Origin: Enterobacter phage Entb_47
DNA length: 11,593 nucleotides
Direction: 5' to 3' (one strand)
Sequence record: PV067697.1
Part shown: positions 1 to 11,593 of the stretch, one piece after another
How positions within the stretch are numbered: position 1 is the stretch's first letter
How the letters are laid out: every line of letters starts with the position of its first letter
Made by a program: the position numbers and the translations under genes
The notes under the pieces: model-generated
Told to the model about the DNA's origin: nothing
Databases searched by the model: none
What the model saw: only the letters and a program-made list of their open reading frames with translations

Positions 1-138
1 CCCCGTTCGTGGATTCATTTCCCCGCGTGATTATTAGTTGACTAACGATTGTGGATGTGATAGCGAGATTGATTGCAAATGAAATGATTAGCATGATAAC
101 GATAACGGGAGTGAGGGCTAGGGCTAGGGTTCGTTATC
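1..138. repeat. Left inverted terminal repeat (ITR). It is the reverse complement of 11456-11593 and the right copy extends 5 nt further (CTCTC). Internal short iterons are GATTG x3, GATAAC x2 and AGGGCT x2.5.
   Basis: Direct comparison of window start with reverse complement of window end: identical from ccccgttcgtgg... through ...ggttcgttatc, then diverges. Confidence 0.9.
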
Positions 139-166
139 TATTTCGTACAACTATTATAACAAAGTA

Positions 167-196
167 TTGGCATACACCATAGAGCTATGCTATATT
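167..196 (+). promoter_or_regulatory. sigma70-like promoter for the left-arm cassette (TTGGCA at 167-172, 18-bp spacer, TATATT at 191-196)
   Basis: -35/-10-like hexamers just inside the ITR, ~40 nt upstream of a good SD (AGAGGTGA) and the ATG at 235. Confidence 0.4.
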
Positions 197-234
197 TAGC
201 ATTGAATAGTTAACCAACGTTTTAGAGGTGATGT

Positions 235-555
235 ATGGAATGGAGTAAATTAGTACCTCCTGCAATTAATAGCATTAAATTTAGTGCTAATGATTTAGTT
301 GAATTTATCAATAGTAAATTAGAAGGTCGTAAAGTACACGTTGATTATGATTGGGATAATCACGTTGTATATGATGTTAAAGCAGGGTATTACTACTGGC
401 AGATTGCTATTGCTCATTCAGATATGAACTCTTTTAACTTACGTGAGATTTTGTTTGATAAAAATGTTGACGTTGAAAACGTAACAGTGTTAAAATTCTC
501 TACGTTGTCAGAGACAATCAATCACATTATCAACGTTATTCAATCAGTGGAGTAA
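235..555 (+). CDS. hypothetical early protein, 106 aa, AT-rich
   Basis: ORF with a strong SD AGAGGTGA 4 nt upstream. No motif recognised. Confidence 0.6.
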   Translation: MEWSKLVPPAINSIKFSANDLVEFINSKLEGRKVHVDYDWDNHVVYDVKAGYYYWQIAIAHSDMNSFNLREILFDKNVDVENVTVLKFSTLSETINHIINVIQSVE

Positions 556-560
556 TAAAG

Positions 561-791
561 ATGGAAAAGAAAATCACGCTTTATATTGTAGCTCTTGCGT
601 CTGTAGTTGCTGCGGTAGATGCTGCTAACGTTACCGAAAAAGACGGTATCCATGTTCTCAAATCTGGCGTTTCTATTGAAGGTGTTCCATTCACCTCTAA
701 ACGTCAGGCGCTGGATGCGGTAGAATTGACCGCTAAATTCGGCCTCGAAACCGTAGTTTGCAGTCAGAAACGCACTGTTAAACTGGCGTAA
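561..791 (+). CDS. small secreted/periplasmic protein, 76 aa, with an N-terminal Sec signal peptide (MEKKITLYIVALASVVAAVDA|AN)
   Basis: ORF with GGAG 8 nt upstream. Hydrophobic N-terminus with an AxA-like cleavage site. GC-rich, enterobacterial-style codons (CTG, GCG, CGT). Confidence 0.6.
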   Translation: MEKKITLYIVALASVVAAVDAANVTEKDGIHVLKSGVSIEGVPFTSKRQALDAVELTAKFGLETVVCSQKRTVKLA

Positions 792-801
792 TCTGTAGTA
801 A

Positions 802-838
802 ACGGGGCTGTAAATGGATACCGATTTCCGTAGCCCCT
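802..838 (+). terminator. GC-rich stem (GGGGCT/AGCCCC) with a 22-nt loop, followed by TTTAAAA. It may be an attenuator or terminator-like hairpin, or a structured RNA. A 10-bp direct repeat TTAAAATCAA follows at 839-848 and 851-860.
   Basis: Inverted repeat 804-809/832-837 read directly from the sequence. The loop is unusually large. Confidence 0.3.
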
Positions 839-879
839 TTAAAATCAATCTTAAAATCAACTGTAAGAGAGAAACGAAA

Positions 880-10414: not shown

Positions 10415-10422
10415 TAATAAAA

Positions 10423-11043
10423 TTACTCGTCAGCTAATTTAAACCATTTACCAGTAGTACGGTTATTAATTGGTGTCTCATATTGTTTGATAGCATCGGT
10501 TACAGCTTTAACCATACCGTCTATATCACCATCAGCACTAGAGAGATCAATTTCACCGCTTTTAACATATTGATTAATAGTTTCCCATATTTTTTGATAG
10601 CCAATAGCAGAAGCCATATCCTCAACAGTTCTTAAGTATTGCTCTACTTTACTAGCCAACTCAAAAAACTTAGCTGATTTTTGTTTCAGTTCTTTCATAT
10701 TGGCATATGAAATACCAGTATTTGCAGCCATTTCTTTTAGAGTAGTAGTTACCCCTTTTACCGTTGACGTGTTCATATCAATGAAGCGTTTAAGGCGTGA
10801 AACTTCCTGCTGTAGTTCATTATGGGTCTTACCTTTCACCCCAAATTTACCGCCTGTTTTTAGGTACATTTGATAAGCGGGTGAATCCTGTAGCCCGTTA
10901 GCCTCAAGACGTTGAGCACGTTTATTGGCAAGACTTGCTAAACGTGATGCCTCCTTTCTATCCGCGCTAATCTTCTTAGCTTTAGCTGCGGCATCCTTCA
11001 TAGTCTGAGATATTGCCTTTCTTGCTTGTTCAAAAGTTGCCAT
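10423..11043 (-). CDS. putative terminal protein, 206 aa, basic and helical, immediately upstream of and co-transcribed with the DNA polymerase. A DNA-binding protein cannot be excluded.
   Basis: Position equivalent to phi29 gene 3. The start is moved to the ATG at 11043, which has a perfect AAGGAG SD, because the track's TTG start is unlikely. No sequence motif confirms the function. Confidence 0.4.
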   Translation of the reverse strand: MATFEQARKAISQTMKDAAAKAKKISADRKEASRLASLANKRAQRLEANGLQDSPAYQMYLKTGGKFGVKGKTHNELQQEVSRLKRFIDMNTSTVKGVTTTLKEMAANTGISYANMKELKQKSAKFFELASKVEQYLRTVEDMASAIGYQKIWETINQYVKSGEIDLSSADGDIDGMVKAVTDAIKQYETPINNRTTGKWFKLADE

Positions 11044-11056
11044 TGTCAACTACTCC

Positions 11057-11179
11057 TTAGAAATTAATAGAAGTGATAACAGCGAAAGCAATAATAAAAA
11101 TTACAGCTTTCCACATTTTACGCCCTTCACTATAAGCAGGGTTTTTATCAGTGTAAGTTACAACATAATCTTTTTTCAT
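11057..11179 (-). CDS. 40-aa membrane micro-protein (MKKDYVVTYTDKNPAYSEGRKMWKAVIFIIAFAVITSINF) that is not in the supplied ORF track
   Basis: Its ATG overlaps the regulator stop (ATGA) and its TAA stop lies inside the AAGGAG SD of the next gene. It has a single C-terminal TM helix and exactly fills an otherwise 130-nt gap in a gap-free operon. Confidence 0.5.
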   Translation of the reverse strand: MKKDYVVTYTDKNPAYSEGRKMWKAVIFIIAFAVITSINF

Positions 11180-11382
11180 TTACTTAATTCCCTTGCTAAT
11201 CCATCTATGAAATTTAATGTATCGTATTTCTCAACACTCAATTTCATATATAATTTAAGATGTTCAATATTTGAACTTCTACCATTTTCAAAAGCTGAAA
11301 TAGTTCCTATCTTATCACCTGCTAACTGTTTCAACGTTACCCCATGTTTCAATCTATATTCTCTGCAATAGTTGCCTATCAT
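11176..11382 (-). CDS. HTH_XRE-family (Cro/CI-like) transcriptional regulator, 68 aa
   Basis: Helix-turn-helix signature VTLKQLAGDKIGTISAFENGRSSNIEHLKLYMKL, SD AGAGGG 7 nt upstream, first gene after the promoter. Confidence 0.8.
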   Translation of the reverse strand: MIGNYCREYRLKHGVTLKQLAGDKIGTISAFENGRSSNIEHLKLYMKLSVEKYDTLNFIDGLARELSK

Positions 11383-11414
11383 TTTAAAACCCTCTATACT
11401 AATAACTCTTAATC

Positions 11415-11442
11415 ATTATAACATCATTAGATTTAACGTCAA
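11415..11442 (-). promoter_or_regulatory. Strong sigma70-like promoter for the long minus-strand operon. On the minus strand it reads TTGACG, 16-bp spacer, TGtTATAAT (extended -10). A direct repeat ATCATTA at 11412-11418 and 11423-11429 overlaps the -10.
   Basis: Near-consensus hexamers read from the reverse complement of 11415-11442, placed ~30 nt upstream of the regulator ATG and just inside the right ITR. Confidence 0.55.
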
Positions 11443-11450
11443 TAGAAAAC

Positions 11451-11593
11451 GATAACGAACCCTAGCCCTAGCCCTCACTCCCGTTATCGTTATCATGCTA
11501 ATCATTTCATTTGCAATCAATCTCGCTATCACATCCACAATCGTTAGTCAACTAATAATCACGCGGGGAAATGAATCCACGAACGGGGGAGAG
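11451..11593. repeat. Right inverted terminal repeat (143 bp), terminal sequence 5'-CTCTCCCCCGTTCG on the bottom strand
   Basis: Reverse complement matches positions 1-138 exactly and adds 5 extra terminal nt. Confidence 0.9.

Follow-up and report, generated by a model that had tools for sequence, protein, structure and literature searches.

Phi29-like podophages of Gram-negative bacteria have been described in several recent reports. Pectobacterium phage DU_PP_III was presented in 2021 as the smallest tailed phage, with inverted terminal repeats (ITRs) of 219 nt, seven phi29-like proteins recognised by HHpred, probable protein-primed replication, an open question as to its packaging RNA (pRNA), and kinship with Salmonella phages (PMC8472413). 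In 2024 a Gram-negative cluster, cluster 23, was delineated, whose genomes of 11-14 kb encode a short lower collar and a two-gene tail knob with variable numbers of immunoglobulin (Ig)-like domains, and have no fibre or spike genes (PMC11476376). Phage MT83_9 followed in 2026 (PX674062; 11,145 bp, G+C content 34.65%), with 87% identity to DU_PP_III at 74% coverage (PMC13097653); by its length, composition and proximity to DU_PP_III it is distinct from the genome studied here. Here we compare with these phages the whole stretch of 11,593 nt deposited as Enterobacter phage Entb_47 (PV067697.1), hereafter the window. We consider it very likely that the window represents, almost in full, the linear genome of a virulent podophage of the phi29 type from an Astrithrvirus-like clade, which holds the smallest known tailed phages and infects Gammaproteobacteria. 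An initial reading made from the letters alone (the sequence-only reading) had suggested an undescribed lineage; since a Gram-negative phi29-like group, with the genus Astrithrvirus and unclassified relatives, has already been published (PMC8472413, PMC11476376), the window is not evidence for one.

The window is linear, with a G+C content of 36.7% and a coding share of 94%. Its 15 open reading frames (ORFs) comprise 12 on the minus strand in one block and three small ones on the plus strand from the left end, and it contains no tRNA genes. Matches of the core genes were judged by curated Pfam cut-offs, with PHROGs in agreement, and all four members of the phi29-like core that had been read from the translations (PolB, gp16 ATPase, gp10 connector and gp8-like capsid protein) scored above these cut-offs. 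The PolB of 703 aa (minus strand, 8303..10414) is of the protein-primed type: it matched PF03175 (DNA_pol_B_2; E 6e-14, 52 bits against a cut-off of 25.8) and phrog_1907 (E 8e-103), its sole solved-structure match in the PDB was the phi29 polymerase (1xhx), and the Exo I-III and Pol A, B, C and KxY motifs are all visible in its translation (FDIETT, NLGYEF, YCENDI, DFTSSYP, KGMLNSIYG, YSDTDS and KTLGAKRY). The gp16-type packaging ATPase of 362 aa (minus strand, 7218..8306) matched PF05894 (E 1.5e-21, 77.7 bits), the family profiles covering only its N-terminal 185-197 aa; it would package the DNA through the portal, an upper collar connector of the gp10 family with 380 aa (minus strand, 5883..7025; PF05352, E 2.6e-16, 60.4 bits). 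The portal ends in an extension of ~100 aa that is acidic, Asn-rich and of low complexity (residues ~285-380, window 5883-6200); among relatives the protein ranges from 380 to 425 aa and the extension varies. The major capsid protein of 407 aa (minus strand, 4091..5314) matched Phi29_MCP (PF25622) with E 1e-69 and 235.8 bits.

As in the phi29-like protein-primed podophages in the broad sense, the linear genome is flanked by ITRs. The left ITR (1..138) is the perfect reverse complement of positions 11451-11588, and five extra bases follow at the right end (11451..11593); a perfect inverted repeat of 138 nt lying exactly at both ends excludes chance. Replication by PolB would be primed from both ITR ends by a terminal protein, the putative candidate for which is a helical protein of 206 aa (minus strand, 10423..11043), to judge from its position directly upstream of PolB, its conservation and the published cluster (PMC11476376). 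The inner part of each ITR carries an element, GATAACGATAACG-GGGAGTGAGGGCTAGGGCTAGGG-TTCGTTATC (plus strand, 95..139; mirrored on the minus strand at 11450-11494), in which a G-quadruplex-type motif, GGGAGTGAGGGCTAGGGCTAGGG, stands between inverted GATAACG/CGTTATC on the 5'-ended strand at both ends. The element is partly conserved, the G-quadruplex motif recurring in the ITR of an IMG/VR contig (L011, UViG 3300045988_111551) and three G-runs in Salmonella phage Astrid, and our guess is that it could serve as a protein-binding or origin element. In another IMG/VR contig, L008 (IMGVR_UViG_3300045988_075093), positions 1-60 contain the Nextera transposase adaptor GAGATGTGTATAAGAGACAG, so that the apparent ITR of that contig is partly an artefact.

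To place the window among described phages, we searched 50,697 phage records (GenBank phages to August 2025). Megablast returned partial matches, with 75-83% identity over 9-40% of the window, to the Salmonella phages astrithr, assan and Astrid, to Salmonella phage S.Kent 1-2-1, to contigs of S.Ent 1-35-3, and to Pectobacterium phage DU_PP_III; a protein search with PolB added Acinetobacter phage Phanie, Vibrio phage K58 g2 and Shigella phage vB_SHGBLB0004. These named relatives are 10.4-11.9 kb long and have the gene order of the window, with protein identities from 28% to 93% (for the portal, ~54% to all). Intergenomic similarity was calculated with our own BLASTN approximation of VIRIDIC and read against the conventions of 70% for a genus and 95% for a species. 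Named phages and IMG/VR contigs reached 44-49% (Phanie ~27%), below both conventions, the most similar records of these two kinds being S.Kent 1-2-1 (49%) and L011 (47%), with the S.Ent 1-35-3 contigs (<=5.6 kb) set aside. Near-identity to a classified genus had been named beforehand as the finding that would speak against novelty: clear homologues in the same order do exist, but they are only 44-49% similar.

By nucleotide criteria these similarities make the window, as yet uncultured, a new species, and by the 70% rule it is possibly also a new genus beside Astrithrvirus. Similarity to the type species of that genus (44-45%) lies below 70%, whereas gene content and order agree with it (13/15 genes, capsid protein identity of 93%), and NCBI places DU_PP_III and Phanie, which are just as distant, in Astrithrvirus.

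Closer relatives were found in sequence archives. The Logan contig SRR32094282_14 is 100% identical to window positions 109-11480 (11,372 nt; similarity 99%), so that it represents one and the same genome with less of the ends, and the window is thus not an assembly chimera; exact-protein look-ups found window proteins on this contig only. Two further contigs, SRR22222781_5915 (90% similar) and ERR4678602_13443 (80%), match the window in gene set, with orfA, p40 and the M15 endolysin described below all present. No publication turned up when the literature was searched for the SRA run numbers. In ERR4678602_13443 the portal and lower collar are of the astrithr type (L086 4457-6249 against window 5327-7025), with 55% and 42% identity to the window, and the flanks of this block are 84-89% identical; the block is a clean module exchange. 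The lineage is common in sequence data: at >=90% identity PolB falls into a cluster of 55 sequences, every one of them taken from metagenome/SRA assemblies at ENA, Logan or JGI, and a GenBank metagenome assembly supplies one sequence of the endolysin cluster. The 660-aa knob protein has only 13 relatives in a collection of 5.8 billion proteins, and the full-length genomes from SRR22222781 and ERR4678602 are among the contigs that encode them. One JGI member of the PolB cluster, P0016, bears the name 'NADPH-dependent 7-cyano-7-deazaguanine reductase QueF-like protein', an evident mis-annotation.

The host is probably to be sought where the cultured relatives were found, namely in Salmonella, Pectobacterium, Shigella, Acinetobacter and Vibrio. 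Most of these hosts are Enterobacterales, and we infer a gammaproteobacterial, probably enterobacterial, host for the window. The Gram-negative adaptation proposed from the sequence gains support here, both from the hosts of the relatives and from the endolysin, whose homologues are found for the most part in phages that infect Enterobacterales. A host among Gram-positive bacteria or Mollicutes, as for classical phi29-like phages and the 11.6-kb Mycoplasma phage P1, would accord with the low G+C content (36.7%) and with more distant capsid relatives (50-60%) whose contigs had been assigned by binning to Clostridia, Bacilli and other taxa of the gut. Yet astrithr, which grows on Salmonella, also has a low G+C content (39.7%), all cultured relatives with at least 48% PolB identity infect Gammaproteobacteria, the endolysin is single-domain with phage homologues almost all in phages of Gram-negative hosts, and the binning of 11-13-kb phage contigs into metagenome-assembled genomes (MAGs) is not host evidence. 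We therefore hold a host of this kind to be the least credible of the alternatives considered, with hardly any probability.

Codon usage contributed little. The E. coli-like codons noticed in the sequence-only reading are found in the capsid gene (CTG 15/30, CGY 9/10, no AGR, ACC 15/32, GGY 24/28), but GCG is not preferred there, CCG is used in 0/9 cases, and the genome as a whole prefers TTA (relative synonymous codon usage 2.55, the top Leu codon), GCT and ACT. With the bias confined to the capsid gene, and CCG avoided, we rejected codon usage as host evidence, considering it weak. When one genome per GTDB species was scanned with a capsid profile, the matches were likewise rejected as host links: apart from one Herbiconiux assembly, which is contaminated, they were confined to MAG contigs that had been mis-binned. 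In that assembly, of an actinobacterial isolate (Herbiconiux daphne CPCC 203386), at least seven small scaffolds (L040-L042, L070, L077, L078 and L080) have capsid matches, at differing identities of 65-92%; contamination from a phage-rich sample is likely, rather than a host link.

The tail gene set had been read as proteins of 146, 187 and 660 aa, and these sizes were borne out (145 aa, or 149 aa from an upstream ATG; 187 aa; 660 aa). The tail would consist of a collar and a two-piece knob. The lower collar candidate, a short counterpart of gp11 with 187 aa (minus strand, 5327..5890), and the putative proximal tail-knob protein of 145 aa (149 aa from the upstream ATG; minus strand, 3594..4031) are assigned from synteny and from comparison with the published cluster, in which the proximal protein corresponds to phi29 gp9 in its N-terminal part (PMC11476376); the 145-aa protein has no Pfam or PHROG match. 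The putative distal tail-knob protein of 660 aa (minus strand, 1610..3592) likewise owes its label to synteny and PMC11476376, and the genes for the 145-aa and 660-aa proteins form a pair in synteny with gp9 and gp10 of Phanie. The 660-aa protein has four predicted N-terminal Ig/FN3-like beta-sandwich domains (D1, residues 1-110; D2, 111-215; D3, 216-305; D4, 306-405) followed by a conserved C-terminal knob part (406-660), and a full-length AlphaFold2 model matched generic FN3/Ig folds only. No fibre, spike or gp12-like appendage gene was found among the 15 ORFs with Pfam and PHROGs.

The lateral domains of the distal knob protein are variable. [quoted passage not shown] Cassette exchange is the usual signature of specificity modules. 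On the strength of this exchange of D2 and D3 on near-identical backbones, we propose the Ig-like domains as the target-recognition module, and it is likely from the alignments that they determine specificity; the four domains displayed by the distal piece would then serve specificity and adsorption. In an exhaustive search of the Ig-like region against 1.84 billion representatives, 43 matches were returned, nearly all of ~470-840 aa, the length typical of this knob-protein family. Among these 43, a length outlier was rejected as an unrelated repeat adhesin, and another match is a PA14-domain protein.

What the Ig-like domains recognise bears on a second reading of the window, as a satellite that replicates, packages its DNA and lyses its host by itself, and is infectious only when docked on the contractile tail of a helper myophage. 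The precedent is Phanie, which, as relayed in PMC11476376 from Pourcel et al. 2024, can infect only while attached to the helper myophage Aci01-1's contractile tail. The window has the gene order and split knob of Phanie, no tail-fibre or tail-spike gene was recognised in it with Pfam and PHROGs, the whole clade being alike in this respect (PMC11476376), and Ig-like cassettes are shuffled among near-identical backbones, as might be expected if they specified the helper tail rather than the bacterial receptor. Several relatives also come from mixed material: 'Vibrio phage K58 g2' (OZ195715, L039), 'S.Kent 1-2-1 NODE_9', which is filed as UNVERIFIED_ORG (OR850881, L003), MT83_9 from a nine-phage cocktail (PMC13097653), and the astrithr group from a deliberately crude high-throughput isolation. 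Astrid, astrithr and assan have nevertheless been described as Salmonella phages of an ordinary kind, Astrid being termed non-satellite in one preprint. The N-terminal domains of the knob protein are unlike those of Phanie gp10, the C-terminal part alone aligning, at 32%. Ig-like domains commonly bind surface carbohydrates directly. A two-gene knob with lateral Ig-like domains occurs clade-wide and so does not discriminate Phanie-type satellites, and helper dependence is not something that a sequence as such can reveal. We consider it unlikely, at perhaps one chance in several, that the window is such a satellite; the same tentative standing applies to the wider proposal that the window and its clade are Phanie-like tail hijackers in which D1-D3 would encode the choice of helper myophage tail. 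If true, the smallest tailed phages of Gram-negative bacteria would have chimeric virion formation as a general strategy.

Returning to the window as an autonomous virulent podophage, its genes appear to be arranged in two converging transcription units. A near-consensus sigma-70 promoter (TTGACG-16-TATAAT with TG; minus strand, 11415..11442) lies directly inside the right ITR, and DU_PP_III, L011 and L008 have conserved it. From it a long leftward operon would run through the regulator, terminal protein, polymerase, ATPase, holin-like protein, portal, collar, capsid protein, two knob proteins and endolysin. Its first gene encodes an Xre-like helix-turn-helix (HTH) protein of 68 aa (minus strand, 11176..11382) with weak Pfam and PHROG matches, next to p40, a membrane protein of 40 aa (phrog_10979; minus strand, 11057..11179) present only in the window's own clade. 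A strong intrinsic terminator hairpin (minus strand, 4048..4072) directly 3' of the capsid gene and before the tail genes is likely an attenuator, through which the tail and lysis genes would be expressed at a lower level. Within the genome, RNA structure is strongest at 3960-4140 on the minus strand (z of about -8 in the genome scan; -4.7 on 181 nt), where this terminator is joined by neighbouring hairpins that extend over the ribosome-binding site of the gene that follows. A match to the small RNA SpF03 of Rfam in the same region (E 0.25) is weak and probably due to chance.

In the opposite direction, a promoter-like site identified by consensus match only (TTGGCA-18-TATATT with TG; plus strand, 167..196) precedes orfA-orfC, and a bidirectional intrinsic terminator (1211..1232) lies at the junction of the two units. 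This short converging operon would yield three small proteins, one of them probably a single-stranded DNA (ssDNA)-binding protein. The product of orfA (106 aa; plus strand, 235..555) is an ORFan limited to the window's own clade, that of orfB (76 aa; plus strand, 561..791) has a hydrophobic N-terminal segment and 82% identity to its astrithr homologue, and that of orfC (104 aa; plus strand, 880..1194) is better conserved within the clade (54-90% identity) than any other small protein and has no Pfam or PHROGs match. A p5-like ssDNA-binding protein has been reported for the Gram-negative cluster (PMC11476376), and we would guess that orfC encodes its putative counterpart. Neither orfA nor p40 had a tblastn match among the 50,697 phage records.

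Lysis would be brought about by a small membrane protein together with a single-domain L-Ala-D-Glu peptidase. The latter (123 aa; minus strand, 1242..1613) proved to be the T5-type M15 endolysin that the translation had suggested: it matched 8q2g (E 8e-21), T5 EndoT5 (2mxz, E 1e-13) and ChiX (5opz, E 1.7e-13) in the PDB as well as phrog_465 (E 4e-36), its match to Pfam Peptidase_M15_4 by itself falling below the cut-off, and the zinc-ligand pattern H..D...H, read in its translation as SRHIIGQAVD and DYPHW, places it with the T5 EndoT5 type. The 1,221 phage homologues lie mainly in Salmonella, Escherichia, Klebsiella and Vibrio phages, and the nearest ones outside the clade in Enterobacter and Serratia phages (53-55%). 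Among the records compared, the M15 endolysin occurs in S.Kent 1-2-1 (70%), L011 (68%) and the window's uncultured relatives, and it is absent from the astrithr group and DU_PP_III; other lysins of the clade are annotated as CHAP-type in Astrid and as an amidase in Phanie. By these comparisons the lysis cassette is replaced within the clade. The lysin regions set side by side were window 1242-1613, L001 9644-10099, L002 9334-9783 and L037 10350-10964. The holin candidate is a single-pass membrane protein of 62 aa (minus strand, 7028..7216) that matched the holin phrog_4898 (E 6.6e-5) and is supported by a note to Astrid ORF005; its ATG at 7216 is preceded by an AAGGGG ribosome-binding site. 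The 40-aa membrane protein (11057-11179) and the orfB product with its hydrophobic N-terminus are perhaps further lysis partners.

Several results weigh against a near-complete virulent phi29-type genome with a gammaproteobacterial host. First, the complete genome with both ends that had been proposed is borne out by the perfect 138-nt ITRs, but a few bases are probably lacking at the extreme termini. Comparison with the genome ends of DU_PP_III (terminus GGGATATCCGCCCCCCCCCCGTTCG) and Phanie (terminus GGGTTATCCGCCCCCCTCC) suggests that ~16 nt are gone on the left, where the window starts CCCCGTTCG, and ~11 nt on the right, which reads CTCTCCCCCGTTCG; under-representation of termini is the expectation for protein-capped ends. 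DU_PP_III and Phanie both begin GGG(A/T)TATCCGCCCC, and the left end of the window is 5 bases shorter than the right.

Second, several proteins and elements of a phi29-type phage found no counterpart in our searches. A profile of the 206-aa putative terminal protein had no similarity to phi29 gp3 or to any PDB chain, profiles of the 187-aa lower collar candidate gave no match against the PDB and phi29 gp11, and a profile of the knob C-terminus gave nothing significant against all PDB sequences and phi29 gp9, the quality of the model of this part being insufficient for fold matching. The genome has neither a recognisable scaffold gene nor an evident spanin or outer-membrane disruption gene, despite the presumed Gram-negative host. 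A scan with Rfam 15 at E<=10 gave no credible pRNA match; the ITR is not structured (z +1.1), and no end region was among the structured windows of a genome-wide z-score scan. Since the unique intergenic stretches are each <=90 nt, a pRNA gene of phi29 size has no obvious place. The packaging motor may work without a pRNA, and a divergent pRNA is also conceivable.

Lastly, the host searches were negative. A megablast search with the whole window found no match in 5,426 complete E. coli genomes, three blastn searches of the same genomes with the whole window (E<=0.05, at a sensitivity suited to 32-nt spacers) found none either, there was no match among 72,556 plasmids, and the capsid-profile scan of GTDB species yielded no enterobacterial assembly. 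The search for a prophage, episome or spacer that had been recommended with the sequence-only reading thus turned up nothing in these E. coli genomes and plasmids. The same absences tell against a different interpretation, in which the window would be a resident enterobacterial element (a linear phage-plasmid, an episome or a prophage) rather than a virulent phage. A small Xre-like HTH gene does head the early operon, and some phi29-related Enterococcus elements are recorded as plasmids (PMC11476376); the window, on the other hand, has no integrase, partition or maintenance gene recognisable with Pfam and PHROGs, and all copies are free contigs of ~11.4 kb. We regard a resident element as very improbable, and the lytic lifestyle of the phage as the better inference.

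Taken as a virulent phage of the Astrithrvirus-like clade, the window adds what is possibly a genus-level branch to the smallest known tailed phages, one that has so far been found only in unannotated assemblies (PolB cluster, n=55). The comparisons show that the clade evolves by module exchange, affecting the endolysin family, the portal and collar block, and the Ig-like domains of the knob. The pattern of variable domains marks the likely specificity determinant and bears on the mode of adsorption, whether direct or via a helper tail. The picture of phi29-like phages in Gram-negative hosts is itself unchanged, having already been published.

Among known systems, phi29 (Salasmaviridae) shares with the window a homologous PolB, gp16 ATPase, gp10 connector and gp8 capsid protein and a linear genome with ITRs. 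Phi29, whose host is Gram-positive, has a genome of 19.3 kb and an ITR of 6 nt, against at least 143 nt in the window; its pRNA, scaffold protein gp7, head fibre, gp12 appendages, gp13 tail lysin and one-piece gp9 knob are not detectable in the window. All replication and structural genes of the window lie on one strand, and the gene order of phi29 differs. Phanie has the same gene order, a split knob, no fibre genes, and identities of 59% for PolB, 60% for the capsid protein and 68% for the ATPase. Its overall similarity is ~27%, its lysin is CHAP/amidase-like, and its knob protein has 854 aa and six Ig-like domains (PMC11476376), compared to 660 aa and four in the window. S.Kent 1-2-1 (OR850881, unverified) and L011 share the M15 endolysin of the window, but they differ in PolB (73-80%, the lower value for S.Kent 1-2-1), in the knob protein (36-44%) and in their small genes.

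Further named relatives are the phages of Astrithrvirus. Astrithr, Astrid and assan (Astrithrvirus astrithr) resemble the window in length (11.6-11.7 kb), in having ITRs, and in 13/15 window genes in shared order, and astrithr in the capsid protein (93% identity), ATPase (79%), orfB (82%) and orfC (76%). They are unlike it in an intergenomic similarity of only ~44-45%, and astrithr diverges in PolB (57%), the putative terminal protein (47%), portal (53%) and lower collar (43%); its knob protein is 39-40% identical and aligns from residue 145 only. The endolysin of the astrithr group belongs to another family (151 aa, CHAP-annotated in Astrid), in contrast to the M15 enzyme of the window, and astrithr has no homologue of orfA or p40. 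DU_PP_III, an unclassified Astrithrvirus, differs in the capsid protein (75%), in a knob protein that aligns only from residue 312, and in having another endolysin, and is ~45% similar overall. Yet it is the best match in replication and packaging (PolB 82%, ATPase 85%, putative terminal protein 65%, HTH protein 61%), and, like the window, it is bounded by long ITRs, of 219 nt in its case, whose terminal sequence is related (...CCCCGTTCG...); the early promoter adjoining the ITR is shared as well.

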